From a virus (taxonomy: Duplodnaviria; Heunggongvirae; Uroviricota; Caudoviricetes), in the IMG/VR virus record IMGVR_UViG_2877973648_000001, positions 1 to 20,998 of that record: a stretch of 20,998 bases of DNA, one strand, 5' to 3'. Position 1 is the stretch's first letter. Each line of letters opens with the position of its first letter. Under the pieces are notes generated by a model that had not been told where the DNA came from, ran no database searches, and saw nothing but the letters and a program-made list of their open reading frames with translations. This document shows positions 1-20,998 of this stretch, piece after piece. A program made the position numbers and the translations under genes.

Positions 1-174
1 ATGAATTGGATATACAAAATAATCTTTGAAATCATTGCTACGGCAATCTATATGTTCGTACTATTTCCATGTTGGATAGTACTGTGCATCTTTTTTATGT
101 TACTAACAGTATTAGCACTACCTTTGAAAATTCCAACCATAAATAAAATGGTTATCAAGTTTTTGGAACGATAA
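1..174 (+). CDS. small hydrophobic membrane peptide (57 aa); may be 5'-truncated by the window edge
   Basis: ATG at 1 to TAA at 172-174, read directly. Translation MNWIYKIIFEIIATAIYMFVLFPCWIVLCIFFMLLTVLALPLKIPTINKMVIKFLER is almost entirely hydrophobic (1-2 predicted TM helices). Below the 60-aa cutoff of the ORF track. Confidence 0.3.
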   Translation: MNWIYKIIFEIIATAIYMFVLFPCWIVLCIFFMLLTVLALPLKIPTINKMVIKFLER

Positions 175-192
175 AAAATAACATGGTATAAT
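163..192 (+). promoter_or_regulatory. candidate sigma70 promoter with extended -10 (TTGGAA, 18-bp spacer, TGgTATAAT)
   Basis: TTGGAA at 163-168 and TGG-TATAAT at 184-192, read directly; positioned upstream of the small ORF at 313-465. Confidence 0.35.
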
Positions 193-312
193 CCATATTA
201 TGGTGATCACTACCTCAACGTGATAATTATAATTCTACATCAAAAAGTAATCCCCAACATGGGGATCTTTTTGCGTTGAGAAAAAATGGAAAATGTTAAA
301 CAAAGGAATGTT

Positions 313-465
313 ATGAAAGAAAAGAAAACTATTAGTGTTGGGGTGAGATTAAGTCCTACACAAGAAGAAATACTAAAATCACTTATAGTGTGTGGTAAGG
401 CTACAACGATGAGTTCAGCCATTCAGTATCTGATACAGCAATATGGGATTTTAGATAGTAAGTAA
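313..465 (+). CDS. small ribbon-helix-helix-like DNA-binding protein (50 aa)
   Basis: ATG at 313 preceded by AAAGGAA with 4-nt spacer; stop TAA 463-465. N-terminus KKTISVGVRLSPTQEEILKSL resembles the beta-strand/helix start of RHH (CopG/Arc/MobC-like) proteins. An alternative upstream ATG at 286 gives 59 aa. Confidence 0.4.
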   Translation: MKEKKTISVGVRLSPTQEEILKSLIVCGKATTMSSAIQYLIQQYGILDSK

Positions 466-538
466 GGGTTTGGTACTTTCACTTTAGAAAGGTACTAACA
501 GTACTTCAGGATGAAGTACTTAGTTTCAAGGATGAAAT

Positions 539-1039
539 ATGGAAAAGGAAAAAAGAAATGACCTAAAGGGTCAGGAATTACCACATGTAAAACAAGCACT
601 ACGAGTATGGAATAATTTTCACTCAAGAGTACGTAATAACATCAATTACAGTACTGTTACCATCTGCGATGACTGGTATCGGTTTAGTGATTTTTATTAT
701 TGGTATGTTGAAAATGTTGTTGATGGTTGGCATTTAGATAAAGACATATTAGGAGGTAATGAGTACAGCCCAAGTAACTGCATCTTTGTACCGAGAGAAG
801 TAAATCAATTGTTCCGTAAAGTACCAACATCATTATCAACCGGTGTTGTCGTTAATCATAAGGGCTATCAAGCACAAGCAACATTTGATAAGAAAGTACA
901 TAAGTTTGGGACATACCCAACGATAGAAGAAGCTCATGCTGCTTATGTTGTTGAGCGTAAATCATATATCTATAAAATATCGCAGCAGTATAAAGCATTT
1001 CCAAAACTTAGTGCGGTACTATTACAAAAATCAAAATAA
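539..1039 (+). CDS. HNH endonuclease with C-terminal AP2-like DNA-binding domain (phage homing-endonuclease-like)
   Basis: Track ORF 166 aa. Motif GWHLDKDILGGNEYSPSNCIFVPREVN matches the HNH_3-type pattern (H-x-D...N...N); VVNHKGYQAQATFDKKVHKFGTYPTIEEAHAAYV matches the AP2 domain pattern. Confidence 0.7.
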   Translation: MEKEKRNDLKGQELPHVKQALRVWNNFHSRVRNNINYSTVTICDDWYRFSDFYYWYVENVVDGWHLDKDILGGNEYSPSNCIFVPREVNQLFRKVPTSLSTGVVVNHKGYQAQATFDKKVHKFGTYPTIEEAHAAYVVERKSYIYKISQQYKAFPKLSAVLLQKSK

Positions 1040-1104
1040 CGAAATGGCCTGAGTACTGGAAATACTACAGGCCAATATTAACATCTATCATAGGGGTATT
1101 TATT

Positions 1105-1629
1105 ATGACAAAAAAGAAAGAGCCGCATGAAATAAAGAAACGTGGACGAAAACCAAAAAAACACGATAATGCAGAATTACAAGATCATCTAAGGGGAGTA
1201 CGCCATCTCAATCAACTTACAGATGAAGCACGTAGAGTAATATCAAACTCTGTTAAAAGTTACTTTGAAAAGAACAAGAAACGTAAGACTTTCTCAAACA
1301 AGAATATGCTACTTCTGGTTACATCGACTCGATACATCACAGATGAAGCGATAAAGAACAATATCGAGTACTTTGATGCCTTTACACTCAATGAGTACGG
1401 CGATTCCTCAGTACGAGATTATAAGATGGTCACGATTGCTATATGTGAAGGCCTGAATGCGATTCTAAGTAGTGGTAAGCCGGTAAGAAGTGATACACCA
1501 GAGGGAGCACAGTACTTAACTGGTGAAGAAGCATATCAACTACGTATGGCTTTAGATGGTGGCTGTACTAAGGCAGACCTACTAAAGGTTATAGCTACAA
1601 TTTATCCCGAATTAAGACATTCTAAGTAG
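1105..1629 (+). CDS. hypothetical protein with N-terminal AT-hook-like basic motif (KKRGRKPKK)
   Basis: Track ORF 174 aa, co-directional with the upstream HNH-AP2 gene; GRKP core flanked by lysines at residues 12-19. Confidence 0.55.
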   Translation: MTKKKEPHEIKKRGRKPKKHDNAELQDHLRGVRHLNQLTDEARRVISNSVKSYFEKNKKRKTFSNKNMLLLVTSTRYITDEAIKNNIEYFDAFTLNEYGDSSVRDYKMVTIAICEGLNAILSSGKPVRSDTPEGAQYLTGEEAYQLRMALDGGCTKADLLKVIATIYPELRHSK

Positions 1630-2301
1630 TGTTTTAATAACGGTTCAAATGTCGTAATTAAGGTTAAATGTGGTTTTTATGGGGTTGATTAGTGTTGCTT
1701 GCACTAGATATAGTATCTATATGAGTTAAAACACACTGTATATGGGTTGCCCAGAATTTCGACACCATAATTAGAAATTATTAAGACCTCTTGTACTACG
1801 TCCAAATCGGTCTTTGAGTGCCTACACTCCCTGCGGTCGTATAGTCACTGAAAAACAAATTAAACCGAACCTTGCGTTTTTTCTCGCTAGTACTCGAAAA
1901 GAACTAAGGGATTTACTCGCTTTCGCTCAGACAAGTAACAGTACTGACAAAAGAAGAACTCAAAGTGATTTGGTAAGTATTCGTGAGTAACTACGTGGTC
2001 GTAAACTCCCTTGTCGGGGCGTTCGGCTGTTAAAGCCTCACATAATTACTTTCTAAGTACTGGCAAAGTAATTGATCAAATTATTAGTGAGTTGCCCACG
2101 CAGTCCCAACCGCGAACCGTGGATCGACCGAACCCAGATTGTTGCATACGATTTACATAATCGTTCCTTGCAAGTAGATATATTAATTTGAACAACAGAA
2201 GCAGTCTTAGCTTTCTATCTAAGCTGTAAGGTTGCTTATCTGATACTTGAACAATTACAGGCATTTGGAGTACTATTAGCAATACATTCTGTTTAGAGAT
2301 A

Positions 2302-3180
2302 TTGATTCATATGTACAATTCAGGCAAGGAATATGAAGAACTAGTACGGGATATCCAGCGGTCACTTATTGCAGCTGAGAATATACCAAGCCTCAATAAT
2401 ATTAACATTGAGAAGAATAAAAAGATTAAAGATCGTTCAGGTATTGAAAGGGAATTTGATATCTATTGGGAATTTGAGTTAGGGGGTAATATCTATAGAT
2501 CAGTGATAGAGTGTAAAGATTATTCAACACCAGTATCTATTGAAAAAATTGATGCATATATTGGTAAAACTTCAGACATCCCAGGTCTTAAGCTAATTTA
2601 TGCTACACGGACAGGATATCAGAGTGGTGCAAAGATAAAAGCTGAACAGCACAATATACAGTTGCTTGTTATACGTGGTCAGCAAGAGTCCGATTGGATT
2701 ACTGAAGATGGTGAGCCATTGTTAAAAACAATTCATATGAATATAATTGCACGGACATTACCAGAAATTAAAAATTTTAATGTGCGTGTTGATGGTGCAT
2801 GGTTTAACTCTCAGAGCGACTATAAAGAAGATGATTTCCAAAATATATTTAAAGGAAAGATGAACAATGAGGTCTTCATCAATGATGTTCAAAACAATGT
2901 GAAATATACTATACATGATATACCAAACAGGATTTTCAGTTTGAGTAAAGAACTGAAATATGGCCCTGGTGAATATTTTGAAAAATTCAATGATGGTTGG
3001 CTCGAGGGTTTAGATAGTAAGGTGCGATTTAAAATTACAGAATACCATTGTGATTACGTTTATCGAGAACCTATAGCTAGTACATCCATTATAGATTTTT
3101 CAGAACAAATTAAAGCTATAGTCGAGGATTTTCAGTCGGGCAAGAAAAAATGGGTTATGAATGATGGTAGTGTTAAATAG
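2302..3180 (+). CDS. Mrr-like PD-(D/E)xK restriction-endonuclease-fold protein with an uncharacterised C-terminal domain
   Basis: Track ORF 292 aa (TTG at 2302; in-frame ATG at 2311). EFDIYWEF...VIECKDY...IDAYIGK...GLKLIYATRTGYQSGA follows the D / E-x-K core and downstream layout of Mrr_cat-type nucleases. Confidence 0.6.
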   Translation: MIHMYNSGKEYEELVRDIQRSLIAAENIPSLNNINIEKNKKIKDRSGIEREFDIYWEFELGGNIYRSVIECKDYSTPVSIEKIDAYIGKTSDIPGLKLIYATRTGYQSGAKIKAEQHNIQLLVIRGQQESDWITEDGEPLLKTIHMNIIARTLPEIKNFNVRVDGAWFNSQSDYKEDDFQNIFKGKMNNEVFINDVQNNVKYTIHDIPNRIFSLSKELKYGPGEYFEKFNDGWLEGLDSKVRFKITEYHCDYVYREPIASTSIIDFSEQIKAIVEDFQSGKKKWVMNDGSVK

Positions 3181-3302: not shown

Positions 3303-3320
3303 TGTTGAACTATGTGAACT

Positions 3321-4216: not shown

Positions 4217-4945
4217 ATGAACCGGAAGCAATTCATCCAGTCGCACGGAGCTACTTGCAGTAACTGGACGTGGAGTTGGTCATTTGTTAACCATGAAAAG
4301 AAGATGGTCATCTTTGGGTCATGGGATGTTGAGAGTGAACAAGAGCGGTCAGTCATTCTTCGAGAGCGTTGGGAGTACAACTCAAACAACAAAAAACAAC
4401 TGGGATACACCCAGGCACTGGAACACGTCAGGTTAGTCCATGAAGGCTACGAACTTTACACCTTCAATATGGTTTTCGCAGAACACCCGGATAACCCTGA
4501 AATTGCAGTTATCAAGGATTTTGAGCGTAAATTAAACAAGCGATATCTGCGTAAAGAAGGCGTTGTTTGGTATGCAGACTTCTTACCTAATCCATTCCCT
4601 GATGAAATTCCTTCAGGAGAGAGTTTTGTTGAAGGTGCAAAGACTCAAGTAACAGTGAACTACTACGAACGCGATCCAAAGGCCAGACAAGCCTGCATCC
4701 AACATCACGGTACTACCTGTAAATGCTGTGGTTTCGATTTTGAGAAGGTCTATGGTACACATGGCCGTGGATTCATTCATGTACATCACATCAAGCCGCT
4801 TCATACGATTGGGGAAAACTATGTGGTCAACCCCGTAACAGATATGGTCCCATTATGTCCAAATTGCCATGCAATGGTACATCGTGGGAGCAAAGTACTT
4901 TCAATTGCAGACTTGAAAGAGAAAATGACCTTTTGGAGCGAGTAA
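4217..4945 (+). CDS. HNH nuclease-domain protein with an uncharacterised N-terminal domain (candidate type IV restriction / defence nuclease)
   Basis: Track ORF 242 aa; AAAGGA 7 nt upstream of ATG. C-terminal CKCCGFDF...GFIHVHHIKPLHTIGENYVVNPVTDMVPLCPNCHAMVH is a zinc-finger HNH motif (C-x2-C ... HH ... N ... C-x2-C-H). Confidence 0.7.
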   Translation: MNRKQFIQSHGATCSNWTWSWSFVNHEKKMVIFGSWDVESEQERSVILRERWEYNSNNKKQLGYTQALEHVRLVHEGYELYTFNMVFAEHPDNPEIAVIKDFERKLNKRYLRKEGVVWYADFLPNPFPDEIPSGESFVEGAKTQVTVNYYERDPKARQACIQHHGTTCKCCGFDFEKVYGTHGRGFIHVHHIKPLHTIGENYVVNPVTDMVPLCPNCHAMVHRGSKVLSIADLKEKMTFWSE

Positions 4946-5806
4946 ATGGATTTATCACAATTGAGTAACGTCGAATTGATGCAACTGAATCAGTTGACGC
5001 TTGATGAGTTAGAACGACGAGAGGTTATCAGAACCAGAAACAATCCTATCAGTGAGTACACTGAATGGCTGGTTGCGGATAAGATGCAAATGGTACTGGC
5101 TGCACCTAGTACTAAAGGGTATGACGCTACAACGATTGATGATCGAAAAATTCAGATTAAGTCTCGTAAGAATAATTTAAAAAACAAATCATTAATTCTT
5201 GGGATTATCAGAAATTATGATCTGAACCAATTCGATGAGCTCATTGCCGTAATATATAACCATGATTTCTCAATTCGTTATGCTGTATCCATACCACATG
5301 AATTAGTGAAGGAATATGGTTTTTATAATGAGCACCAGAATGGTTACACTTTAAGAATCAGCAATTTATTACTTAACGATCCACGTGTAACAGACATCAT
5401 TGAATTTATTGATCCAGACACTGAACGTTCAAAGGAAGAGATCACGGTGAAGCCAGATTCAAACACTATCCGGGATCTACAGACAATAGGAATGCAGACA
5501 TTTATTGAGTACTATCAGTATGTTGAAAGTGGTATGAACACAACTGATCTTGTTGAAAAGATGGTAACTGACCATCCAGAATGGAAGGAAAGTACTGCAA
5601 GAACAAAGGCATCTTCAATGCGAAGAGTATTCAAGAATGGCGACAACGTTGAAGCACTAAAAATCATCTATAAGTCGAATCACTCAGCAATAACGGATGA
5701 GATTAAGAGTAAACTTATGACGCTTTGTGAACCGCTCCGGTTTTCCTGGAGAGTATTTTGCCTGAGTGATCAGGCTGCCACATCCCGGTCATTCAGCGAA
5801 GCGTAA
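4946..5806 (+). CDS. hypothetical protein translationally coupled to the HNH gene; native C-terminus replaced by IS-derived codons
   Basis: ATG at 4946 directly follows the upstream TAA (TAAATG). The IS629-like end lies at 5728, so residues after ...KLMTL are read from IS sequence. The reconstructed native gene ends ...MTLWDK (263 aa) using 9306-9314. Possible PD-(D/E)xK-like motif GYDATTIDDRKIQIKSRK. Confidence 0.55.
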   Translation: MDLSQLSNVELMQLNQLTLDELERREVIRTRNNPISEYTEWLVADKMQMVLAAPSTKGYDATTIDDRKIQIKSRKNNLKNKSLILGIIRNYDLNQFDELIAVIYNHDFSIRYAVSIPHELVKEYGFYNEHQNGYTLRISNLLLNDPRVTDIIEFIDPDTERSKEEITVKPDSNTIRDLQTIGMQTFIEYYQYVESGMNTTDLVEKMVTDHPEWKESTARTKASSMRRVFKNGDNVEALKIIYKSNHSAITDEIKSKLMTLCEPLRFSWRVFCLSDQAATSRSFSEA

Positions 5807-6242
5807 TAGGCTTTTTCTGCCTCCACTGGCGGGATATATCCGGTCCGTTCCATCAATCGGTGATTATTGTACCAGTCCACCCATTTCAGCGTAGCCAGCT
5901 CAACATCCTGTCGGGTTTTCCAGCTTTGCCTGTGGATCACCTCCGCTTTGTACAACCCGTTGATACTTTCTGCCATCGCATTGTCATATGAGTCGCCCGT
6001 GCTGCCTGTTGAAGCCAGCAGCTCCGCGTCCTGCAGCCGTTGCGTGTACGCCAGTGACACATATTGCGAACCTTTGTCGCTGTGATGGATGGTACCGCTC
6101 GGGCGTCTGGCCCACAGCGCCTGCTCCAGTGCATCCAGCACGAACGACGTTTCCATCGTGGATGAGACCCGCCAGCCCACGATAACACCGGCGAACACAT
6201 CAATGATGAAGGCCACATATGCGAACCCCTGCCAGGTGCTGA
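5770..6242 (-). CDS. IS3-family transposase OrfB, C-terminal exon (downstream of the group II intron)
   Basis: Translation ...STWQGFAYVAFIIDVFAGVIVGWRV...DSYDNAMAESINGLYKAEVIH... is the DDE catalytic/C-terminal region of IS3-family OrfB; the track ORF 5770-6216 begins at an internal GTG. Confidence 0.75.
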
Positions 6243-8512
6243 GTAGAGTAAGAGGCAGGGCGTAGTCGGACTATTTCCCTGCCTCTCCTCCCCGAACCGG
6301 ACGTGCACCTTTCAGCGCATCCGGCTCTCCATTTAAATGCTGGCGAACGCCATTGCCACTTCTGTAAAGCGCGATGTATACGTGTTTCTGGTCTCCGTCC
6401 TCAGATAGGGATTACCTTCGGGTAGCCGCCAGCGGAACAGCTTCTTGCCTTGCCCCACCAACCGGTACAGTATTTCGCCGCTGAGCTTGCCGTGATTGGT
6501 TTTACCAAATAAAACCCACGTTTTGCTCTGACCCGGTTTCGGTGATTTACACCACCACCTCATCAGGGAAGCGATACCTGTACGGTATTTGCGGGCCAGC
6601 CAGTGAGCCAGCTTCCAGAACACGACACGGTCGATATAACTGAAGACTTTGGCCTTAAAATCAACGAACTGATAGAACATGGCCCAGCCTTTCAGTTTTC
6701 GGTTGAGTTGTTCAGCCATATCGACTTTGCTTTCACTGTAGTTGCCTGATAACAGTGCTGTCAGCGATGCGGCGAAGTTTCTGGCTTTCTCCTGCGGGAT
6801 CGTTGAGACCACTCGCATCTCGCCATAACGACTGCGTTTGCGAATGATCCTGTGCCCCAGAAAGATAAAGCCGTCATTAACATGGGTGATTTTAGTCTTA
6901 TCCATGTTCAGCCTGAGTTTCAGACTGCCTTCGAGCACACCCCGACACTCCTCCCTGATGGCTTCCGCCTGTGCTTTGGTGCCTTTGACGATGAGGACAA
7001 AATCATCGGCATAGCGGCAGTACGCCACCGCGGGTTTCCACTGCCAGTTTTCTCTGACCGCCGTACTTCGGCCCCGTTGGATACTGTTATTCCAGTACCA
7101 CCGATCTTTTCTGGCTTTCCCGCTCAGGTAGCGCTCATGCAGGTATTGATCGAACTCATTCAGCATGATGTTCGATAATAGCGGCGATATAACACCGCCC
7201 TGTGGCACACCTTCACTGGCCGCCCGAAAGAGACCGACATCGATATGTCCCGCCTTGATGGTTTTCCACAGCAGAGTCATGAAACGTGCGTCACTGATCC
7301 TGCGGCGTACAGCCTTCATCAGCAGTCGATGATGTACGGTGTCGAAGTAACTGGACAGGTCGCCTTCAATCACCCAGCGTCCCCGGGTTTCACCACAGTC
7401 TGTGAGCTGTAATTTCACCGTGCGGATCGCGTGGTGGACACTGCGCTCAGGCCGGAAGCCATATGAGAGCGTATGAAAATCACTCTCCCATATCGGCTCC
7501 ATCGCCATCAGCATGGCCCGCTGAACAATACGATCCCGCAACGCGGGGATACCCAGTGGTCGCAGTTTGCCGTTGCTTTTAGGGATGTAAACCCGTCTGG
7601 CGGGCAAGGGCTGGTAGTGGCCTGAGAGTAATTCATCCCTGAGGATTTGCAGCTCAACAGCCAGTCTGGCCTGTAGCATTGTTTTGTTCACGCCATCAAC
7701 GCCGGGGGTATGGGCCCCCTTTGATGAAAGCGTGATCCGCGCCGCTTCAGCCAGCCATTCTGGTTGTGTTATCAGACGCAGCAGCCGTTGAATCCGTAGG
7801 GACGGATCGGTGACTGCCCATGTGGCAAGCTTGCGTTGCATTTCGCTGATTATCAAAGGTCTTCACCTCGTTAGGTCAGTTAATTCACGTCGCAAACACA
7901 TTCAAACTGCTTCCCTTCGCCATGTAATGGGCTTTCCCCATCGCGGACTACTACGGAAGCTCCGCCAGCCAGCGCGTCATCGGAGCCATGCCCCCTTAAC
8001 ATCCGTCGCTGACCTTCCCCGGTTTACCTGCCTGGACTCAGGCATACTGAGGAGGCTGCCCGTCGCACTCTTTATCCTTGCTTGCCGCAAGTTGGCAGAA
8101 GTCAGCAACGCAAGCGTGATAGACGCTGCTGCCCCGGTGTTTCGCATACATGTCAAAACACCTTCGACCGGCAGTGCTTACGTATCACTGCCAGTTCCTC
8201 CTGCACGGCCTGTCAGATCACGTAGGCCGTGGTGACGTTTTCAACCCACAGAGGCGGATTAACGGGTTCATGTTCTTCAGCCTTTCAGTACTTAACCTTG
8301 AGGATCATCTCGGCTTAGTGATCTCGCCTCAATCCCCGTTGTCAGCGGGTTACATCACCCTGCGGGCATGCCGCAGGTCACTGCCGCTCAGGTTCTCCAC
8401 CGTCACACCCGGTGGGATTGTTGGGTTTCTCATCGTGAGTTACCGGTTCAATATTCCAGACAGACTCGCGGTTCATTTAAGCATCCATGCCCGCCCTGAA
8501 CTCCGGGCACAC
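6243..8512 (-). mobile_element. bacterial group II intron inserted in the IS629-like orfB
   Basis: Minus-strand 5' end GTGTGCCCGGAG (GUGYG consensus) starting at 8512; domain V GAGCCGGATGCGCTGAAAGGTGCACGTCCGGTTC at 6294-6327; domain-VI-like stem and 3' end ...CTAC at 6243. Joining the flanking exons gives a continuous OrfB (...ADFTY-V-STWQGF...). Confidence 0.8.
6333..7856 (-). CDS. group II intron-encoded reverse transcriptase/maturase
   Basis: Track ORF 507 aa with RT motifs (...RPLGIPALRDRIVQ..., ...YCRYADDFVLI...) and a maturase X region; ORF ends just upstream of domain V, as is typical for an ORF within domain IV. Confidence 0.85.
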   Translation of the reverse strand: MIISEMQRKLATWAVTDPSLRIQRLLRLITQPEWLAEAARITLSSKGAHTPGVDGVNKTMLQARLAVELQILRDELLSGHYQPLPARRVYIPKSNGKLRPLGIPALRDRIVQRAMLMAMEPIWESDFHTLSYGFRPERSVHHAIRTVKLQLTDCGETRGRWVIEGDLSSYFDTVHHRLLMKAVRRRISDARFMTLLWKTIKAGHIDVGLFRAASEGVPQGGVISPLLSNIMLNEFDQYLHERYLSGKARKDRWYWNNSIQRGRSTAVRENWQWKPAVAYCRYADDFVLIVKGTKAQAEAIREECRGVLEGSLKLRLNMDKTKITHVNDGFIFLGHRIIRKRSRYGEMRVVSTIPQEKARNFAASLTALLSGNYSESKVDMAEQLNRKLKGWAMFYQFVDFKAKVFSYIDRVVFWKLAHWLARKYRTGIASLMRWWCKSPKPGQSKTWVLFGKTNHGKLSGEILYRLVGQGKKLFRWRLPEGNPYLRTETRNTYTSRFTEVAMAFASI

Positions 8513-8927
8513 CGTAGGTAAAATCGGCCACCCAAAGACTATCGGGCCGTTCAGCCACGAACTGCCGGTTCACCCGATCCTGCGGTGTTTCGGCTTTGTT
8601 GCTGCGGGTGGTTCTGACACTTTTGCCGCGTGTCACCCCACGTAGCTGCAGGGCTTTCATCAGGCGCTCAATGGTGCAGCGGGCAACGCCGACACCTTCA
8701 CGTTTTAGCTGTCGCCAGACCTTACGCACACCGTAAACGCTGTAGTTTTCTTCGTATACGCGCTGTATCTCAGGTATCAGCACGGCATCGCGTTTATCCC
8801 GACTACTGCGTCGTTCAGGACACTTCCGGCGTTGCTGATGCCAGTAGTACGTTGACGGAGCAATATCCAGCTCATGACAGACTGGCCCGACCCCGTGTTC
8901 ACCGCTCAGATTTTCCAGAAGCGGCAT
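8513..8927 (-). CDS. IS3-family transposase OrfB, N-terminal exon (interrupted by the group II intron)
   Basis: Translation MPLLENLSGEHGVGPVCHELDIAPSTYYWHQQRR...RPDSLWVADFTY; after Y (codon 8514-8516) the sequence enters the intron. The track ORF continues to 8448 reading intron sequence. Confidence 0.75.
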
Positions 8928-9268
8928 TATTTTTTCCAGTGGCGGTCGAGCTCCGCCTGGGCAAAATACGCTGAAGCCTGACGCAGAATATCATTGCTGC
9001 GGCGCAGCTCGCGGACTTCCCGCTCCAGTTCTTTCAGACGCTGGCGTTCGCTGGCAGTCAGCGCATTCTGCTCATCATCAACGGGCTCCTGCTGACGGAT
9101 CCAGATACGCAATGTCTCGGGAGTGCAGCCGATCTTAGGGGCAATGGAGCAGATAGCGGCCCATTGTGAGTTGTAGGTATTCTGGTTTTCCAGAACCATA
9201 CGAATAGCGCGTTGACGAACTTCAGGGGGAAATCGGTTATGTTTTGTCATCCTGGTTACCTCTCTCAA
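8927..9268 (-). CDS. IS3-family (IS629-like) transposase OrfA, helix-turn-helix protein
   Basis: Track ORF 113 aa: MTKHNRFPPEVRQRAIRMVLENQ...LKELEREVRELRRSNDILRQASAYFAQAELDRHWKK; stop overlaps the orfB start (ATGA). Confidence 0.85.
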   Translation of the reverse strand: MREVTRMTKHNRFPPEVRQRAIRMVLENQNTYNSQWAAICSIAPKIGCTPETLRIWIRQQEPVDDEQNALTASERQRLKELEREVRELRRSNDILRQASAYFAQAELDRHWKK

Positions 9269-9415
9269 AGAGTGTAGTCTCCAGGATTACCGGGGCGGTT
9301 CATTGGGATAAATGAACAAAGTTTTGGTTATATTTTTGATGCAAAAAGATATAATTGTAGTACTTCCACCTTTCGCATTTGGGTAGGTTTGTTTGGGCGA
9401 TTGGTGGAAGTGCTA

Positions 9416-9908: not shown

Positions 9909-10418
9909 ATGAAACTCGAACATTGGGCAGTTCCTATTACGTCTTTGGACGGTATGTTACTCGGCGTAGAGCTGGAAACCCGTGTACTGATAAACGGTTG
10001 CCGGGTACTGATGGGGGCAGGAAAGGAAAGTGAATACATTCGTCACGTGGTCTATCAGAACCAGTTAAGAATGATTCAGGGCAAAGCCGCATGGTTCAAA
10101 GAAAAGGGGGTGTTGTGCGTGCTCAGTACTGGCACAGGTACACGCTATGAAGATCTACCATTCATACGGTACATGGCTGCTGAACCGCTGCTAACGGACG
10201 GTTACGACTTAGTTCGACTAAATAGACGGTTCACTGAGGAATACATAGAGCGGTTGATCTTCCCGGTACTCATTAAGAACATCATGCAGTACTGCGACAA
10301 GGTGATCGTACAAGTCAGCAGCAACCGAAATCACAGGATTTTACGAGAGTCGGGCATATGGGCAGTACAGGGAGAGTACAGGCCAATCCGCTTTGAACAA
10401 TGCGAACAACTTCTATAG
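9909..10418 (+). CDS. hypothetical protein with EAL-domain-like N-terminal motif (short, probably degenerate)
   Basis: Track ORF 169 aa; WAVPITSLDGMLLGVELETRVL resembles the start of EAL domains (QPIvsL.g.l.GvEaL.R), but the protein is too short for a complete EAL phosphodiesterase. Confidence 0.45.
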   Translation: MKLEHWAVPITSLDGMLLGVELETRVLINGCRVLMGAGKESEYIRHVVYQNQLRMIQGKAAWFKEKGVLCVLSTGTGTRYEDLPFIRYMAAEPLLTDGYDLVRLNRRFTEEYIERLIFPVLIKNIMQYCDKVIVQVSSNRNHRILRESGIWAVQGEYRPIRFEQCEQLL

Positions 10419-10869: not shown

Positions 10870-12024
10870 TCAACGTAGCATGGCTAATGTTCTGGAAATT
10901 CTTATTATATCCTTCTCAATATCATCTAAAACAGGAGTTGAGTTTCTGCTTCGCTCTGCAATTTCTTGCAAAATATATCTATTTAAATGGTTGTTAACAT
11001 TTTTAGGGTCAAGGTTTTCTGGTGTGGGAACAACACAGCACTGCCAATAAAAAATCTCATCTTCAAAATGATTTAGCCATTTAGAATGATATTTTTCTTT
11101 CGATTTTTTCTTGTTAAGGACATAAATGCTAGCCGCAGCTACCACATCCGCAATTTGTATACCATGCGTGACTTTAGAATCAGAAAGAATCATTGGCTCA
11201 GATAGCTTAAATGTGATCGGGATTTTTTTATCATGAAAAGTCTCGAACACAATCTCATCATTGCCTATCATCTCATTGAATGAGTCCTGATGAGTAATTA
11301 ATGGTTTTGAGCTGTCGCATATAGCTCTCAATGTACCAAACTTACTACTCATATCGCACAGGAGATTATAAAGAGAAGTCGTTGTCAAATCTAATAACCA
11401 CTTATCAATCCCAGTACCCTCAAGGCCTTCATATTCTTCTTCAATTATAGAGATGTTATTCTTGGCGAAATCATGAATGTCCATCATAATTTCAGAATTT
11501 TTAGAACCAACAACTGGTTCGATAAAACTATTAACCAATATTTTACCTCGTGAAAAATCTTCAAATCGCGAATGTAATAGTTCTGAATATTCATCCTTAG
11601 CTATTAAAGAAAAATACATTATATTTGAGATGAATAGGTGAAATTTAAGGTTGTAAAAAATTGAGCTTTTAGCTGCTAATACTGGCTCAAAAATATATTC
11701 GAAGAATTTTCCTGAGAGGGCATATTTTTTTTCGTTTACAACCACACGCATACGACCACGGAAATGATTAAGTATTTCATCTACGGCTGGTTGAAATCTC
11801 TTGCTATTTACGAGAGTGCTACCTTTTAGCTCTTCGGCTGCGATCGAGTACTTGTTTATTATATAATCAACAAACTGTTTACTTTCCTCATCATCAGTCA
11901 CGACTGCTGCGTAACTAAAAAAAGGCTGATCTTTTGAAAGTAAGTTATTACCAGTGAATCCTGATTCATCGAAATATACATTCTTTACCAATTTGGTCAT
12001 TCCTTTATGAGCTACAATGTGCAT
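10870..12024 (-). CDS. DUF3800-like protein (conserved DESG motif near N-terminus, Q-x-AD motif near C-terminus)
   Basis: Track ORF 384 aa; ...VYFDESGFTGNN... and ...HGIQIADVVAAASIYV... match my recollection of DUF3800 signature motifs. True start uncertain (ATG 12024, ATG 12000 or TTG 11991). Confidence 0.55.
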   Translation of the reverse strand: MHIVAHKGMTKLVKNVYFDESGFTGNNLLSKDQPFFSYAAVVTDDEESKQFVDYIINKYSIAAEELKGSTLVNSKRFQPAVDEILNHFRGRMRVVVNEKKYALSGKFFEYIFEPVLAAKSSIFYNLKFHLFISNIMYFSLIAKDEYSELLHSRFEDFSRGKILVNSFIEPVVGSKNSEIMMDIHDFAKNNISIIEEEYEGLEGTGIDKWLLDLTTTSLYNLLCDMSSKFGTLRAICDSSKPLITHQDSFNEMIGNDEIVFETFHDKKIPITFKLSEPMILSDSKVTHGIQIADVVAAASIYVLNKKKSKEKYHSKWLNHFEDEIFYWQCCVVPTPENLDPKNVNNHLNRYILQEIAERSRNSTPVLDDIEKDIIRISRTLAMLR

Positions 12025-12203
12025 GTGCTATTAATATAACATTGTAATAATGCTAATGTAAAATAGAATGTAAGTATTTTTAAGCAAGCTAATTAAGTTA
12101 AATTACTAATTAAGGTACTCCGGCAGCCCAGCTTAGAACGCGAGTTTTCGGCACCGGATTCTTTAAGTTATGTGTGAAGTTTAGATAGCTTCCCGCACCG
12201 CAC

Positions 12204-12767
12204 TTAGCAAAGTACAACACCTATTTCATTTAACGCACAATCGCAATGACGGTTTGTCGGACATTCGCATAATTTGAATACTGCATAAGATCCTTTAAGG
12301 GTATCGGTTACATACTTGTCCATTTCTTCAACTACAGATGATGAGCAATATAAATGAAAACCAACACAGAAAGAATTTCGCATCGGATACTTACATTCTT
12401 GTATAGAGTTGAGTTTCAAATGGTCTGCTTGCAATCCTCTTTTTAAGGCAGATGAACGCTTAGTACATTTCAGCTCAATAAAGATATAGTCTTCAAAAAG
12501 GGTATCTTTTTCTCTCATTATTATATCGATTTTTGAGAGCTTGCTTGCAGGGAAATTATTAGGGGCAAGAAAAGCTGTAACTTCACGTTTAACTTCATAT
12601 TTTCTTTTTTTGTTAAGGAAGTGCTCAAATTCAATTTGTAGCCATTTTTCCCAATCATTAGTTTCATTACTGACGAAGGAATACAGACGCCTCTTTATAT
12701 CTTCATTCTTTAGGAAGCTATTCAGTAACTTTACCAGCAAAGAAAAATCATTGTTGCGGTCTGACAT
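12204..12767 (-). CDS. hypothetical PD-(D/E)xK-like nuclease-fold protein with C-terminal cysteine cluster
   Basis: Track ORF 187 aa; KIDIIMREKDTLFEDYIFIELKCTK fits D ... E-x-K spacing; C-terminal CVGFHLYC...CECPTNRHCDC is Cys-rich (possible metal site). Same strand as, and upstream of, the DUF3800-like gene. Confidence 0.5.
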   Translation of the reverse strand: MSDRNNDFSLLVKLLNSFLKNEDIKRRLYSFVSNETNDWEKWLQIEFEHFLNKKRKYEVKREVTAFLAPNNFPASKLSKIDIIMREKDTLFEDYIFIELKCTKRSSALKRGLQADHLKLNSIQECKYPMRNSFCVGFHLYCSSSVVEEMDKYVTDTLKGSYAVFKLCECPTNRHCDCALNEIGVVLC

Positions 12768-12781
12768 AGTGATCTCAATAA

Positions 12782-14027
<1,246 letters not shown>

Positions 14028-14900
14028 TCTTGACCCTCCATCTCCGAACAGCTTTTGTATCTTAAGTTAACGATGTCCGCTGCCGCCGGTATTCCCTCGG
14101 GGAGTGATATCCCAGCGCGCTGTGCGGGTGGTTTTCATTGTAATGCGTGAACGCTACTGCAAGGTTTCGCAGTGCTGTTCTCACATCCGGTTTTGGCATG
14201 AACGCGATATAGTCTTCTTTCATCGTTTTCACGAACCGTTCGGCCATGCCATTACTCTGCGGGCTGCTCACCGCTGTTGTGCAGGGCTCCAGATTCAGCT
14301 CTCTCGCGAACCTCCGCGTTTCATACGCGGTATACGCTGAACCGTTATCCGTCAGCCACTGCACCGCTGTGTCGGGCAACCTGTCGCCGAAGCGCTTTTC
14401 CACCGACCTCAGCATCACATCCTGCACGGTCGAACTGTCATAGCCTCCCGTGCTTGCTGCCCAGTCTATGGCCTCACGGTCGCAGCAGTCCAGCGCGAAC
14501 GTTACCCGCAGTTTTTCGCCGTTGTCGCAGCCGAACTCGAAGCCATCTGAACACCAGCGCATATCGCTTTCTGCCACCGCTATCTTGCCCTTATGTTCAA
14601 GCTTCGGTCGCTCTGGTTTGTGATGCAACAACAACAGGTTATGCTCGCTCATTATCCTGTAAAGCCGTTTGGCATTCACAGGTGGCTGTCCCTCTGTGCG
14701 ACGTTGCTTGCGCAGGATGCCCCACACGCGTCGATAACCATAACTCGGCATATCGCTGATAATGTTGAGGATAGCCGACAGTATTTCTGCGTCTGCTTCT
14801 TCATTACGCCGGTTACAGCGCCTGTCCTGCCAGTCGGCAGAACGGTTAATCCGCAGTGACAGTTGCGCACGCGACACGCCCATGGTCCGGCTGACCATGG

Positions 14901-16871
<1,971 letters not shown>

Positions 16872-17039
16872 CTAGATATACTTCAATTGGAATCATTACG
16901 TGAAGATGAATTTAACCTACATAAAATACATGAAAGTACTTTAGGCATAACAATATCTGTAGACCAGCTGACCTGCTCCCCGTTGATTAGTACACCCCGA
17001 TGTTAGTAATGTCTTCATAAGCCACATGAGGACATCCCC

Positions 17040-17303
17040 ATGAAGAAGCGTTTTTCCGACGAACAGATCATCAGTATTCTCCGCGAAGCCGAAGCTGGGG
17101 TACCCGCCCGTGAACTCTGCCGCAAGCATGCCATTTCCGATGCCACGTTTTACACCTGGCGTAAGAAGTATGGCGGTATGGAGGTGCCTGAAGTTAAGCG
17201 CCTGAAGTCGCTTGAGGAAGAGAACGCCAGACTCAAGAAGCTGCTTGCCGAAGCCATGCTGGATAAAGAGGCGCTTCAGGTGGCTCTTGGGCGAAAGTAC
17301 TGA
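17040..17303 (+). CDS. IS407-group transposase OrfA
   Basis: [49 protein letters not shown]...[15 protein letters not shown]... closely resembles IS407 OrfA as I recall it. Confidence 0.8.
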
Positions 17304-17326
17304 CGACAGACCAGAAGCGGGAAGCC

Positions 17327-18160
17327 GTGATGTTGATGTGTGATGCGACCGGTCTGTCGCAACGTCGTGCCTGCAGGCTTACAGGTTTATCCCTGTCGAC
17401 CTGCCGCTATGAGGCTCACCGTCCGGCTGCTGATGCGCATTTATCAGGGCGCATCACTGAGCTGGCACTGGAGCGCAGGCGTTTTGGCTACCGTCGTATT
17501 TGGCAGTTGCTGCGCCGTGAAGGGCTTCATGTTAATCATAAGCGCGTGTACCGGCTTTATCACCTCAGTGGCCTGGGCGTAAAACGCAGAAGACGTCGTA
17601 AAGGGCTGGCAACAGAACGTCTGCCGCTGCTCCGTCCGGCGGCGCCCAATCTGACCTGGTCGATGGATTTCGTCATGGACGCACTTTCCACCGGTCGCAG
17701 GATCAAGTGTCTTACCTGCGTCGATGATTTCACAAAGGAATGCCTGACGGTCACTGTTGCCTTTGGGATTTCAGGCGTTCAGGTCACGCGTATTCTGGAC
17801 AGCATTGCACTGTTTCGAGGCTATCCGGCGACGATAAGAACTGACCAGGGGCCGGAGTTCACTTGCCGTGCACTGGATCAATGGGCCTTTGAGCATGGTG
17901 TTGAGTTGCGCTTAATCCAGCCGGGCAAGCCAACGCAGAACGGATTTATTGAGAGCTTTAACGGACGATTTCGCGATGAATGTTTGAATGAGCACTGGTT
18001 CAGCGATATCGTTCATGCCAGGAAAATTATTAATGACTGGCGGCAGGATTATAACGAATGCCGCCCGCACTCCACGCTGAATTATCAGACACCGTCTGAA
18101 TTTGCAGCGGGCTGGAGAAAGGGTCATTCTGAGAATGAAGATTCCGACGTTACTAACTGA
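17327..18160 (+). CDS. IS407-group transposase OrfB (DDE integrase)
   Basis: Track ORF 277 aa with ...[10 protein letters not shown]...[56 protein letters not shown]... (rve-type catalytic core). Confidence 0.8.
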
Positions 18161-18414
18161 GTGTTGTATCTAATCGTGGGGGCAGGTCATTCTGTACACT
18201 GTATTCCGCGACAATACAAAAGATACTGATGGACTACTTACACGTGTTTCAGAACTGGAAACTAAACAAGCAGTACAGGAAAGTAGTATGGTGCGTATTG
18301 AAGCTGATCAGAATAAGATGCGTGATGCTTTAACTAAACTTGAAAACCAGATCCATGATCTGGATGTGAAAATTGAAAAAATCATTACCATTCTTGAACA
18401 GAAACAATAAGAAG

Positions 18415-18450
18415 AAAGGCGATAGTACATAATGCTATCGCCTTTTTGTT
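18415..18450. terminator. candidate bidirectional intrinsic terminator
   Basis: AAAGGCGATAG (18415-18425) / CTATCGCCTTT (18435-18445) with 9-nt loop, followed by TTGTT; lies between the terminase tail stop (18410, +) and the lysozyme stop (18449, -). Confidence 0.5.
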
Positions 18451-18898
18451 ATTTGTTGGTTAGTACTGCAATCATTGCATCAACACGATTAGGTGTTTGT
18501 TTATACCATAATGAATCTTTAGCCTGTCTGATGGCTTCCGGGTAATCTTTTGCTTTAAGGGCTACTAACATCTTTTTGAATTTCTGTACCCCGCCTAAAC
18601 CTAACTGGAACATCATTATCACAAGAAAATCTTTCCACTCGTCAGGTAGCCAGATATTGAGTGTTTCGACGTTATGCACTGCAATTAGTATATCTTGGTC
18701 TAGTAGGCTTTCCGCTTGCTCAATAGTAATACCATCTGGATACTTTTCACCAACATGTAGTAAATGACCGTAGCCGATGGTTTCAAATTCTAGTGAATCT
18801 TTGTATGTCCAAAATTTGTTATCGTGAAAGTACTTCAATTTTGTTTGATAAGCGATAGTACCTTCATATTCTTTTAATCTGTCTTTTAGTTTACTCAT
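18449..18898 (-). CDS. phage lysozyme, T4-type (glycoside hydrolase family 24 endolysin)
   Basis: Track ORF 149 aa; ...YKDSLEFETIGYGHLL...DQDILIAVHN...MMFQLGLGGVQKFKKMLVALKAKDYPEAIRQAKDSLWYKQTPNRV... parallels T4 lysozyme (YKDTEGYYTIGIGHLL...NMVFQMGETGVAGF...SRWYNQTPNRA). Confidence 0.8.
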   Translation of the reverse strand: MSKLKDRLKEYEGTIAYQTKLKYFHDNKFWTYKDSLEFETIGYGHLLHVGEKYPDGITIEQAESLLDQDILIAVHNVETLNIWLPDEWKDFLVIMMFQLGLGGVQKFKKMLVALKAKDYPEAIRQAKDSLWYKQTPNRVDAMIAVLTNK

Positions 18899-18938
18899 TA
18901 ATAAATACCTATAATAAATCTATATAGGGATATTTATT

Positions 18939-19388
18939 GTGAGAGTTAATAAAGCATGGGAGATGTTCGATATTAATATGTGGAATATGTCAGAAGTAAC
19001 AGATGGGAATTACGTTTCGTTTATCTACATTATTCAGTTTCCAGAGACTGGCGAGTACTATTTCGGTAAGAAGCAAATCTATAAAAAAGTACGCGACATA
19101 AAGAATTTAAAGTCTACTTCAGTTGAATCGAACTGGCCTGATTATACCGGTAGTAGTAAGTGCGTTAATGAAATGATTGAAGCCGGAATGCCATACACTA
19201 AAAAGATTTTGTACTGTGTTAAATCTGACGCAGAGGCAACGATTTTAGAAACAGCATTGATTAGCTACTTTGGTTTACATCCCGACTGTTTAAATAAGGC
19301 AATAATGTGTAAGGCACGATTACCAAAAAACCGTTTGGATTTATTTAAAGTACTGCAATATTTAACTGATTTATTGGGTGTGAGGTAA
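18939..19388 (+). CDS. GIY-YIG-like nuclease-domain protein (possible free-standing homing endonuclease)
   Basis: Track ORF 149 aa (GTG start after AGGGA); N-terminal NYVSFIYIIQFPETGEYYFGKKQ resembles the GIY...YIG motif pair. Assignment tentative. Confidence 0.45.
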   Translation: MRVNKAWEMFDINMWNMSEVTDGNYVSFIYIIQFPETGEYYFGKKQIYKKVRDIKNLKSTSVESNWPDYTGSSKCVNEMIEAGMPYTKKILYCVKSDAEATILETALISYFGLHPDCLNKAIMCKARLPKNRLDLFKVLQYLTDLLGVR

Positions 19389-19392
19389 ATAT

Positions 19393-19953
19393 ATGACAAG
19401 AATAACGGGTATAGATAATGTCACGAACTATATAAAAACAACAGGAACGAAGTTAGGTAAACAGTTCCAAGATGAAATTATTAAGCGTTCAAGAGTATTA
19501 TCTATGAAAGTACAGGCAGATATGAACAATGCCGTAGACAAAGGTGCAGTACCTTTCACTCAACGATCAATTCTATTCTTTTATAAAAAACGGGGTAGTG
19601 GGGTCACAGCTACAATCATGGTCAAAGATGTTCAGGCACAGTACTTATATGGTGTACTGGTTGAACAAAAGGCCATTGATAAATTTGTGCCTACTTCGAA
19701 AGCAAGACTAACGAAGCAGGGTAACATTAGTGGACTAAAGAAAAATTTGGCCTCTGGTCGTTACAAGATAGTCAAAGGTAAAAACGGAAAAGAACGATTA
19801 ATAGATACTACTCAAAAGAAAAAACAAAAGCGTGTAATCGGCCTACGGGAAAGTAAACGCCGTAAACTAATTTATGATTTCTATCAGGAAGTGAATAATG
19901 GTGTGATGTTAGTCATGAGTGGTATACAGGGAACATTCAAGGTAACAAGATGA
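19393..19953 (+). CDS. hypothetical basic protein
   Basis: Track ORF 186 aa, lysine/arginine-rich; starts 5 nt after the previous stop; no recognisable motif. Confidence 0.5.
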   Translation: MTRITGIDNVTNYIKTTGTKLGKQFQDEIIKRSRVLSMKVQADMNNAVDKGAVPFTQRSILFFYKKRGSGVTATIMVKDVQAQYLYGVLVEQKAIDKFVPTSKARLTKQGNISGLKKNLASGRYKIVKGKNGKERLIDTTQKKKQKRVIGLRESKRRKLIYDFYQEVNNGVMLVMSGIQGTFKVTR

Positions 19954-20261
19954 ATTTTGATGAACATTATGGTGAACTAACCAGTGAGATTAAACTCGAT
20001 GGTAATACACCAGAGGCTAATAGTATGCCAATTCATAAATGCTTTCTTGGTAATAAGTTCAAGAAGGTACTAAAGAGTAAACAGATTAATATCGAGCATT
20101 TTATGAATGTTTGCTATGAGAAAAAACAAAATATAACGGACGGTTCAGTACTTACATGGTCACTACAAGGTGACCAGATGGATGTGTACGTAATCGAACA
20201 TAAAAAACTATTCGTTAAGGGAAAACACTTTTGGGTGTATTGCGTGGGGATCATTGAATGA
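19950..20261 (+). CDS. hypothetical protein
   Basis: Track ORF 103 aa; start overlaps the upstream stop (ATGA), suggesting translational coupling. Confidence 0.45.
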   Translation: MNFDEHYGELTSEIKLDGNTPEANSMPIHKCFLGNKFKKVLKSKQINIEHFMNVCYEKKQNITDGSVLTWSLQGDQMDVYVIEHKKLFVKGKHFWVYCVGIIE

Positions 20262-20548
20262 TTGGAATGATAATTGATTTAATCAAAACTGGAGTAGGTT
20301 TCTTCCAGAAGAAAGAACAAAGTAAGCAAGAGCTGGACGCACAGAACAGCCATGAACAGAACCAGATCACACTTGAAGAAACGCGTAAGGGCTTCACTTG
20401 GCGACAGGGCTTAGGATGGGTACTGACGTTCATCATTCTATGGAACTACGTCATTGTGCCAGTACTGGCCTTATGTGGTGTAGTACTCCCCATTGTTCCA
20501 CTTGATGAAATATGGAAAGTACTGATAATCTTGATTGGTGGGAGCTAA
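20258..20548 (+). CDS. small membrane protein with two C-terminal TM helices (holin-like topology)
   Basis: Track ORF 96 aa; charged N-terminal half followed by WVLTFIILWNYVIVPVLALCGVVLPIV and KVLIILIGG; start overlaps the upstream stop. Confidence 0.4.
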   Translation: MIGMIIDLIKTGVGFFQKKEQSKQELDAQNSHEQNQITLEETRKGFTWRQGLGWVLTFIILWNYVIVPVLALCGVVLPIVPLDEIWKVLIILIGGS

Positions 20549-20566
20549 ACCTATTGGAGTACTTAC

Positions 20567-20998
20567 ATGATAAAGGTTCTTGTACCTTGTATTGTTATGC
20601 TGCTTTCTTTTTCTACTATGGCAAAATCTGTAACATATTCCTGTGAGCAAAAGTACACTGTTAATATTAATGCATCGGGCCATGCAGGTACTGTTAAAAT
20701 CTATAAAGATGGTAAGCCAGTTGCAATAACTAGTTCTGATAAATTTTTTATTGATCTTGAATCACATGCTTACGATATGAATGGTGACACTGTATTCAAT
20801 TATGCTGCATATAAAGGGTATGATCATACAATTGAAAGTATACCAGTTTCTGATTTTTATACACTAATAACTAAGAATAGTACCTTGGATTCACCTGCAA
20901 AAGTTGCAAAGCTAAAGGTAGTATTATCCAGTAATGCAATGGATAAAATTTTGAACTGCTCACTCGGATTAGACTTGTCTGGAATTGACTTTAATTAA
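20567..20998 (+). CDS. secreted/periplasmic hypothetical protein (N-terminal signal peptide)
   Basis: Track ORF 143 aa ending TAA at 20996-20998; MIKVLVPCIVMLLSFSTMA looks like a Sec signal peptide. Confidence 0.5.
   Translation: MIKVLVPCIVMLLSFSTMAKSVTYSCEQKYTVNINASGHAGTVKIYKDGKPVAITSSDKFFIDLESHAYDMNGDTVFNYAAYKGYDHTIESIPVSDFYTLITKNSTLDSPAKVAKLKVVLSSNAMDKILNCSLGLDLSGIDFN

Follow-up and report, generated by a model that had tools for sequence, protein, structure and literature searches.

The palindromic hexamer AGTACT is strongly over-represented in the phage DNA of a 20,998-nucleotide stretch of a Caudoviricetes record (IMG/VR record IMGVR_UViG_2877973648_000001, positions 1 to 20,998; hereafter the window), and the same excess recurs in a family of related prophages and in unrelated jumbo phages of Enterobacterales. 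The window is a near-exact match to positions 2154598-2175595 of NZ_CP123310.1, the chromosome of Escherichia coli AREA_C483, where it belongs to an AT-rich element of about 25 kb lying between yeaG and mipA. This element is a defective prophage, because its gene for the large terminase subunit (terL) is broken by three insertion sequences (IS; one of the IS3 family, IS5 and ISSen4), and the window holds the remains of an AT-rich temperate phage, riddled with IS. We conclude that long-term selection in resident phage DNA acts on how many AGTACT sites there are and not on where they lie. We tentatively propose that AGTACT is a signature palindrome, shielded in its carriers and possibly read by a function of the enterobacterial host.

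By exact count, AGTACT occurs 50 times in the window, whereas shuffles that preserve dinucleotides gave 4.17±1.95 sites (maximum 10). Forty-eight of the 50 lie in the 13,754 nt of non-IS DNA, a density 13-fold over expectation, and two (8287 and 17296) in the 7,244 nt of IS and intron DNA (binomial p = 3e-7). A preliminary description, in which sites were counted by eye, had reported a single IS site; the near-confinement of the motif to non-IS DNA stands, while the exact IS count is two, with the site at 16935 assigned to a phage fragment. The whole element in the chromosome record contains 60 sites in approximately 24.5 kb. At about 3 per kb of long-resident phage DNA, the sites are spaced exponentially, in a Poisson-like manner (median 262, mean 380), with a shortage below about 20 bp, and no helical or other periodicity was detected in their spacing.

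For the non-IS DNA, Markov models of order 1, 2, 3 and 4 gave expectations of 3.7, 8.3, 20.3 and 45.0. The high-order expectation approaches the observed 48 because the sub-word tables are dominated by AGTACT itself (114 of the 173 AGTAC pentamers sit inside AGTACT), and is therefore circular; tables built after masking the sites gave expectations of 3.0, 4.7 and 6.7, the last of these at order 3. The preliminary description had named a ratio near 1 under a higher-order model as grounds for abandoning its claim. Such a ratio was formally found at order 4 (48 versus 45), where it is circular, and the order-3 expectation, even unmasked, leaves the observed count at P = 1e-7. The over-representation itself is borne out, with 48 exact sites against 3 to 7 expected.

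The excess is not explained by codon usage and acts at the level of the DNA, as the preliminary description had argued. Synonymous-codon shuffles of the phage genes of the window, which preserve both the proteins and a codon usage that is itself already motif-inflated, gave 6.9±2.4 sites and never more than 15 in 2,000 shuffles, whereas 35 were observed. Ser-Thr pairs were spelled AGTACT in 15 of 31 cases, where about 3 were expected; Val-Leu pairs were spelled GTA-CTN in 31 of 46 cases, and [K/Q/E]-Tyr-T.. contexts xAG-TAC in 12 of 17. Sites were found in all three reading frames (15/12/18) and at 13 intergenic or unassigned positions, confirming what had been noted by eye.

Neither AT-richness nor residence in E. 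coli generates the excess. A sample of 118 kb of the flanking E. coli chromosome contained 6 AGTACT sites, where 11 were expected. Within the window, the cargo-like genes (a Mrr-like gene, an HNH/DUF6998 pair, a DUF3800 gene and two minus-strand genes) contained 6 sites in 4.8 kb, as opposed to 42 in the 9.0 kb elsewhere, which is equally AT-rich (p = 7e-4). A compositional or codon-usage artefact of AT-rich DNA could appeal to the order-4 expectation alone, and is refuted by the circularity of that model, by the synonymous shuffles, by the AT-rich cargo genes of the same element that lack the motif, and by other AT-rich phages with no site at all.

Spread and turnover in the prophage family

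Using the N-terminal part of terL (GpA_ATPase; 13371-14027, plus strand), which carries 5 AGTACT in 657 nt and served as the family marker, we retrieved 62 viral contigs with 65-99% identity and a GC content of 36-42%. All 62 contained 1-4 AGTACT per kb, and AGTACT was the top hexamer in 57 of them. Overall, about 100 related phage or prophage loci from at least seven enterobacterial genera showed this density of 1-4 per kb, with z = 19-33 in prophages of Cedecea, Citrobacter, Pluralibacter, Enterobacter, Kluyvera, Phytobacter and Pseudescherichia. Two further E. coli remnants, one at the same locus with 74% identity (L004) and one at ffs (L005), were equally enriched. Lachnospiraceae prophages with a distant terL contained 0-6 sites.

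In 315 kb of pooled representative family DNA, which takes in loci such as L010, L015 and L019, AGTACT occurred 871 times against 104 expected, an 8.4-fold excess. Nearly all other G/C-containing palindromes have been purged from the same DNA: AGCGCT (0 found, 31 expected), GAGCTC (0 and 33), GCATGC (1 and 48), GGTACC (1 and 41), CTGCAG (2 and 47) and GCGC (0.07-fold). CCCGGG and GCCGGC are likewise absent from the pooled loci. One-mismatch neighbours of AGTACT were present at 1.1-1.8 fold of expectation (AGTATT 1.07, AGCACT 1.42).

Alignment of 6 kb from 15 loci, with 60-83% identity, revealed rapid turnover of individual sites. Among 97 site columns, 34 were occupied in one genome only and 5 were common to at least 10, and switches between TCN-ACN and AGT-ACT recurred at identical Ser-Thr positions. 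The orthologous non-sites were mostly two to four positions away from AGTACT. The sites were nevertheless conserved better than other hexamers, at approximately 60% identity (0.24 versus 0.10), 80% (0.52 versus 0.33) and 90% (0.76 versus 0.67). We found no AGTACT in the minus-strand accessory genes of one relative (L038; 3.5 kb). The selection on density rather than position follows from these observations, because the sites turn over fast, outlast other hexamers, and are scarce in cargo and IS DNA. The turnover and the above-background conservation uphold the earlier suggestion of a selected motif of the highly iterated palindrome type.

We additionally examined the anatomy of the motif. At position -1 there is a preference for C (0.33) and against G (0.11), with the mirror image at +1, and no longer motif was found in the flanks, which carry at most 0.10 bit per position. 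The frequency of G at -1 was 0.01-0.12 in all lineages checked, and the rule at this position was alike in the jumbo phages 121Q, RaK2, GAP32 and fHe-Yen9-04 (hereafter Yen9) and in the window. A stronger flank preference, CAGTACTG, was noted in RaK2 and 121Q. Variants at the outer position (BGTACT) were enriched 2.2-4.4 fold, against 0.6-1.8 fold for variants at inner positions; GTAC overall was enriched 2.6 fold, with GGTACC and CGTACG nearly absent, and the pentamer GTACT, a weaker form of the motif, was enriched by itself. In the window TGTACA occurs 4 times and GGTACC and CGTACG not at all, so that the two variants named in the preliminary description (TGTACA and GGTACC) are indeed not enriched; the outer-position variants GGTACT, CGTACT and TGTACT are raised 2-4 fold, and its statement on close variants does not extend to them. 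Half-sites (BGTACT) were equally frequent on the two strands (1970 versus 2003 in 970 kb of pooled DNA), which argues against signals of the Chi or primase type. Recognition is of double-stranded DNA, or is symmetric, with a GTAC core, weaker A/T outer positions, and C preferred and G excluded at -1.

The methyltransferase and other carriers of the motif

A methyltransferase (MTase) gene starts 52 bp past the end of the window (NZ_CP123310.1 2175639-2176349, corresponding to L003:640-1350). The product, of 236 aa, has motif I followed by NPPF, and matched phrog_3820 ("DNA methyltransferase") and the mad2 and type II MTase models of PADLOC; sequence searches of Pfam, NCBIfam and the PDB did not place it. 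Its predicted fold (AF2, pLDDT 83) is nearest to METTL5, PH1948, M.TaqI and type I M subunits, and the DNA specificity cannot be deduced from the fold, because these neighbours are generic NPPF amino-MTases. In nearly all contigs of the family the gene lies at the right end, and it is a core gene, with conservation like that of terL (67-95% versus 66-89%). From its sequence, we identify it as a predicted N6-adenine MTase of the late operon and the sole predicted modification enzyme of the prophage family. The literature on KP15 and KP27 yielded nothing on this MTase. In a Salmonella member of the family (L182, 9564-10747), the end of the gene for a GIY-YIG protein and the start of the MTase gene share base 10001, a layout resembling that of a restriction-modification operon.

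Profile searching with the MTase also retrieved the jumbo phages GAP32 (L197) and Yen9 (L196), with 57 and 51 AGTACT per 20.7 kb, respectively. In stretches of 14-39 kb from each of three of their relatives, we identified 62 sites per 25 kb and 35 per 14 kb in 121Q (L245 and L248), 91 per 25 kb in RaK2 (L246; z = 51) and 31 per 14 kb in CBB (L247), an 8-fold excess. These cultured Rak2-like jumbo phages of Enterobacterales thus contain 2.2-3.6 AGTACT per kb, 8-17 fold over expectation. The nrdD-nrdG slot, which holds the MTase gene in GAP32, is occupied by a gene for a Gly-rich structural protein in CBB and by nothing in 121Q. The GAP32 enzyme is closer to homologs in T4-like phages (54-56%) than to that of the prophage family (48%). 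In the T4-like phages with MTase homologs (47-55% identical), we found no AGTACT in 13 loci, where about 35 were expected in total. PA5oct, a Pseudomonas relative of the jumbo group with a GC content of 31%, contained none in 12 kb. Across the sampled MTase-bearing phage loci of enteric hosts, AGTACT was either purged or present at about 3 per kb, with a few loci near expectation, and the AGTACT-abundant lineages had no clearly common gene in the DNA compared.

As side observations on these phages, samples of 20-25 kb from the jumbo phages lacked 28-31 of the 64 palindromic hexamers. In 121Q, a tRNA-Ser (L245:15464-15555) with the annotated anticodon ACT would decode the first half of an in-frame motif, AGT, and a C5-cytosine MTase is encoded at 62483-63343 of the record.

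T7-like prophages of Salmonella and Yersinia (L174-L176, L181+L187+L188 and L184), two of which adjoin mipA, also have homologs of the MTase (61-66% identity) at their right end. These prophages contain AGTAGT/ACTACT at approximately 3 per kb in both orientations, no AGTACT, and about 5-fold fewer GTAC than expected. AGTAGT and ACTACT were equal in the T7-like genomes, with 27 versus 23 by orientation in one, and the MTases of these prophages form a separate clade. When the last 10-11 kb or so of two MTase-bearing T7-like prophages were compared with the element by tblastn, the MTase was the sole clear match, with one weak match (34%) besides. A complete 34.5-kb T7-like provirus with about 97 AGTAGT/ACTACT sites had no MTase homolog and no NPP[F/Y] open reading frame, and its single protein match to the family was a distant lysozyme. 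In the DNA compared, the MTase and this distant lysozyme are, that weak match aside, the only proteins in common between the temperate family and the T7-like prophages.

Possible roles of AGTACT

AGTACT is a restriction-type site, of the ScaI/Eco255I specificity. The explanation that we tentatively prefer, and judge slightly more apt to fail than to hold, is that AGTACT is a hyper-abundant signature palindrome, maintained by selection, shielded in its carriers and read by a putative function of the enterobacterial host. Sites are lost and re-created at new positions, and each would add a small, independent benefit. Carriers would have to shield AGTACT from restriction, because other enterobacterial phages purge it (T4-like and T7-like phages have none). 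In the prophage family, the best candidate for such a shield is the conserved late-operon MTase, predicted from sequence to modify N6-adenine; we regard this assignment as close to evenly balanced. AGTAGT, being non-palindromic, would need no shield, in keeping with an MTase that T7-like prophages carry only sporadically. The benefit of density might come from an Enterobacterales-specific host function, because no single tested gene accounts for every carrier and the Pseudomonas relative lacks the motif; we consider such a reader possible, with the balance leaning against it.

Several points weigh against this proposal. We know of no host protein that binds H-AGTACT-D. The avoidance of AGTACT by T4-like phages with MTase homologs indicates that this MTase family is not uniformly AGTACT-specific, and the C5-MTase of 121Q is a possible other modifier. 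The case for a host reader rests on partial genome samples without a common phage gene and on one 12-kb Pseudomonas control. Finally, the exponential spacing fits an additive benefit and molecular drive equally. A broader form of the proposal, which we consider unlikely as it stands, is that AGTACT and its twin AGTAGT form a phage signature read by a conserved enterobacterial host function, such that unrelated AT-rich phages, from 35-kb temperate to 350-kb jumbo phages (121Q, RaK2, GAP32 and CBB), would have arrived independently at about 3 sites per kb as a means of exploiting or evading it, with the palindromic form shielded by any acquired methyltransferase. If true, this would be a new kind of host-phage interface, located in bulk phage sequence.

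Alternatively, AGTACT could be the target of the family's own N6-adenine MTase, with dense methylated sites useful in themselves, for instance as a self label for phage or host nucleases; a comparable idea has been put forward for HIP1. The MTase is a core gene conserved like terL, is the only clear protein shared by the element and the two T7-like prophages across the region compared, and has homologs in GAP32 and Yen9; the T7-like prophages, with their separate MTase clade, carry a one-letter variant at 3 per kb, and the window contains cargo resembling methyl-directed restriction enzymes. A monomeric enzyme would, moreover, account for the change of a palindrome into a non-palindrome as well as for the enrichment of the GTACT half-site. 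However, the 34.5-kb T7-like provirus has its sites without an MTase, the excess (8-fold) persists in CBB and 121Q although their syntenic slots lack an MTase, the enzyme of GAP32 is more similar to homologs from T4-like phages devoid of AGTACT, and one site per 300 bp is too sparse for physical shielding. The MTase, which we had first favoured as a general cause in view of the T7-like variant, was ruled out in that role by the MTase-less provirus, the jumbo syntenic slots and the T4-like phages with zero sites, and we regard self-marking as improbable. The element could also encode a type II restriction-modification system of the ScaI/Eco255I type: the predicted MTase and the GIY-YIG nuclease-domain protein (18939-19388, plus strand; PF19835, E 4e-15) are both core genes of the family, abutting in L182 and separated by four small genes in the element of the window. 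Of the functions listed in the preliminary description, a modification target thus remains plausible for the prophage family but is not a general cause; no evidence turned up for a packaging or uptake signal, and no single function is singled out.

A non-adaptive molecular drive, in which biased repair, gene conversion or a nuclease-linked process turns near-cognates into AGTACT in long-resident phage DNA, would account for the Poisson-like spacing, for the mild enrichment of one-mismatch neighbours, and for the lack of the motif in recent cargo and IS DNA, as slow amelioration predicts. We consider it decidedly improbable: orthologous non-sites lie two to four positions off and include Ser TCN to AGT switches that pass through non-synonymous intermediates, no transition neighbour is depleted (AGTATT, AGCACT), sites are retained above background, the same motif occurs in phages with wholly different replication machinery, and the sole modification enzyme predicted there would make m6A, a non-mutagenic base. 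A decoy or recruitment role for the nucleoid-occlusion factor SlmA, in which the phage DNA sequesters or activates SlmA through weak sites and blocks host division, has the attraction that phages commonly block FtsZ and that SlmA is present in Enterobacterales and not known from Pseudomonas, matching the host range of the motif. AGTACT is also the centre of the SlmA consensus GTGAGTACTCAC, in which G1, T2, purine 3, A4 and G5 are required around a central TA (PMC3020112). Nevertheless, the GTR flank was found on 2 of 100 half-sites in the window and no 12-mer with one mismatch or fewer, G at -1 is excluded in all lineages, and the AGTAGT variant misfits a symmetric dimer, so that this role is very improbable. 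Equally improbable is a single-strand signal for a translocating enzyme, whether a Chi-like stop for a helicase-nuclease or a primase start (CTG flank; primer pppAGUACU). The enrichment of GTACT alone, the precedent of the 5-nt Chi of Bacillus subtilis, and the CTG that C at -1 and G at +1 yield on both strands in 23-50% of half-sites would suit such a signal, but half-sites show no strand asymmetry, ACTACT equals AGTAGT in T7-like genomes despite their strongly directional replication and transcription, and the CTG flank is missing at most sites. LexA-box and TrpR-operator arrangements, judged from the spacing and the consensus sequences, found no support.

The closest analogue of AGTACT is HIP1, reportedly linked to cognate methyltransferases in a proposal made by Elhai in 2015. 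HIP1 (GCGATCGC) of cyanobacteria is described as a hyper-abundant palindrome of coding and non-coding DNA that is maintained by selection and whose function is unexplained (PMC5861425). AGTACT resembles it in being a short palindrome that is hyper-abundant genome-wide, with an excess of about 10-fold (8.4 in the pooled family, 13 in the non-IS DNA of the window and 10-17 in jumbo phages), in its occurrence in all frames and in non-coding DNA, and in being selected. As regards co-occurrence with a cognate methyltransferase, a further HIP-type feature, the family has a candidate in its conserved, predicted N6-adenine MTase, and carriers without it also exist. HIP1 differs in being 8 bp long and cellular, whereas AGTACT is 6 bp long, belongs to phages, is a classical restriction site of the ScaI type, is found alongside an extreme purging of the remaining palindromes, and turns up in phage lineages that are not related.

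Other known systems are less similar. In haloarchaea with a cognate orphan methylase, GATC is over-represented (PMC7230728). There too, the target of a resident MTase is enriched and not avoided, but the effect is of modest size and in cellular genomes, and for AGTACT the cognate link is contradicted as a general cause. Phages are known to avoid restriction sites (PMC6286503), and the present genomes are extreme in this respect for other palindromes; AGTACT is the opposite, with an 8-17 fold enrichment. Like Chi, the DNA uptake sequences DUS and USS, and KOPS, AGTACT is independent of position, occurs roughly once per kb or more densely, is intragenic, and is shaped by selection or drive. However, those signals lack symmetry and have an orientation bias, or they serve natural competence, whereas AGTACT has no orientation bias and involves no competence. 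In cluster A mycobacteriophages, too, a short site (the stoperator) is repeated many times across the genome of a temperate phage, where a single protein reads it. Stoperators are asymmetric, 13 bp long and intergenic, follow the direction of transcription and number about 30 per genome; AGTACT comprises about 100 palindromic six-bp sites, mostly intragenic, with little flank information.

Since phages are known to avoid restriction-type palindromes, the AGTACT excess points to a positive function; one palindrome at 8-17 times expectation, in genomes that purge others, suggests a function strong enough to reshape synonymous coding genome-wide. Enterobacterial phages with no relation to one another share the signature, among them cultured jumbo phages that have been considered for therapy, and it may reveal a new host factor or defence interface. 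In the full-text literature, including papers on 121Q, RaK2, GAP32 and CBB, we found no description of AGTACT over-representation in phages. The motif may also serve as a simple k-mer marker that spots such prophage remnants and separates long-resident phage DNA from recent cargo.

Gene content of the window

The element begins with a large serine recombinase gene and finishes with the MTase gene and a DUF2188 gene, and between these encodes a Nu1-like small terminase subunit (terS), a gpA-like terL, a lysozyme, the GIY-YIG protein and small late genes. It is interrupted by an IS3-family element with its own group II intron, a second IS3-family element, IS5 and ISSen4. In ~35-kb genomes of the family (L038+L151 and seven others), we found no recognisable replication module (initiator, helicase loader, primase or polymerase) and no CI/Cro-type repressor, and the region from recombinase to terS was highly mosaic. 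The first single-nucleotide difference between NZ_CP123310.1 and the window is at 6671, in the group II intron/IS region, and gene coordinates are shifted by 8 bp from about 10.8 kb onwards. One protein of the element occurs in 1,267 indexed collection blocks; the ten places listed were all NCBI assemblies, each with the protein at this locus adjoining mipA. Megablast of the left arm against plasmids and phages gave no match, and distant DNA and terL protein searches retrieved no close isolated phage (best terL identity 35%).

The left phage arm (1-5769, non-IS) contains 18 AGTACT, at 78, 500, 515, 650, 1052, 1367, 1511, 1889, 1940, 2056, 2269, 3231, 3904, 3994, 4894, 5108, 5508 and 5591. It is followed by the first IS3-family element (5770-9300, approximate borders, minus strand; GC 0.55), which is split by the group II intron (ltrA 6333-7856, minus strand) and contains the site at 8287. 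Central phage DNA (9301-14039), with small genes, the DUF3800 cargo, terS and the N-terminal part of terL, contains 18 sites, at 9359, 9485, 9510, 10125, 10288, 10455, 10539, 10574, 10645, 11847, 13057, 13084, 13307, 13458, 13472, 13508, 13637 and 13854; three of these lie in the Nu1-like terS gene (12815-13363, plus strand). The IS3-family element within terL (14040-15300, approximate borders, minus strand) has no site, and the terL fragment beyond it (gpA nuclease; 15301-15699, plus strand) has one, at 15403. IS5 (15700-16900, approximate borders, plus strand) has none. The short phage fragment between IS5 and ISSen4 (16901-16979) holds the site at 16935, and ISSen4, of the IS3 family (16980-18230, approximate borders, plus strand), that at 17296. 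The right arm (18231-20998), with the lysozyme, GIY-YIG and small late genes, contains 10 sites, at 18462, 18829, 19054, 19349, 19640, 20147, 20461, 20482, 20518 and 20558.

Three segments were identified as cargo-like. The weakly Mrr_cat-like gene (2311-3180, plus strand; GC 0.34) has no AGTACT, and the DUF3800 gene with its neighbouring 187-aa gene (10870-12767, minus strand; GC 0.34-0.35) has one in 1.9 kb. The genes for an HNH endonuclease and a DUF6998 protein (4217-5806, plus strand) match methyl-directed restriction-enzyme models of PADLOC (mREase_IV, E 4e-8; mREase_II, E 1.6e-62). The preliminary description had raised the HNH and Mrr-like nucleases as candidates for acting at AGTACT; they look instead like AGTACT-poor defence cargo. 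In ten other E. coli genomes a different remnant, at ffs, carries the HNH/DUF6998 pair with 83% conservation, and the pair could be a weapon against methylated relatives. A separate 166-aa protein (539-1039) lacks a nuclease domain; its match to HNH homing-endonuclease families (phrog_953, E 1e-37) is confined to their C-terminal, DNA-binding part.

Beyond AGTACT, other candidate motifs were considered and set aside. CAGCAG/GCTGCT, considered as a further analogue, was strand-biased, in frame and confined to few structural genes, and was assigned to a coding repeat. The enrichment of ACCGGA in RB49 reflects avoidance of palindromic CCGG contexts and not hyper-abundance. Several other loci (L177 and L178; L120, L122, L113 and L127; L110 and L112; L080; L126; L199) each contained a dispersed palindrome of their own at about 1.3-1.7 per kb, examples being TCCGGA in a T4-like phage and in Lachnospiraceae prophages, GGCGCC, GATATC and CTGCAG. 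One favoured palindrome per lineage may thus be a general pattern.

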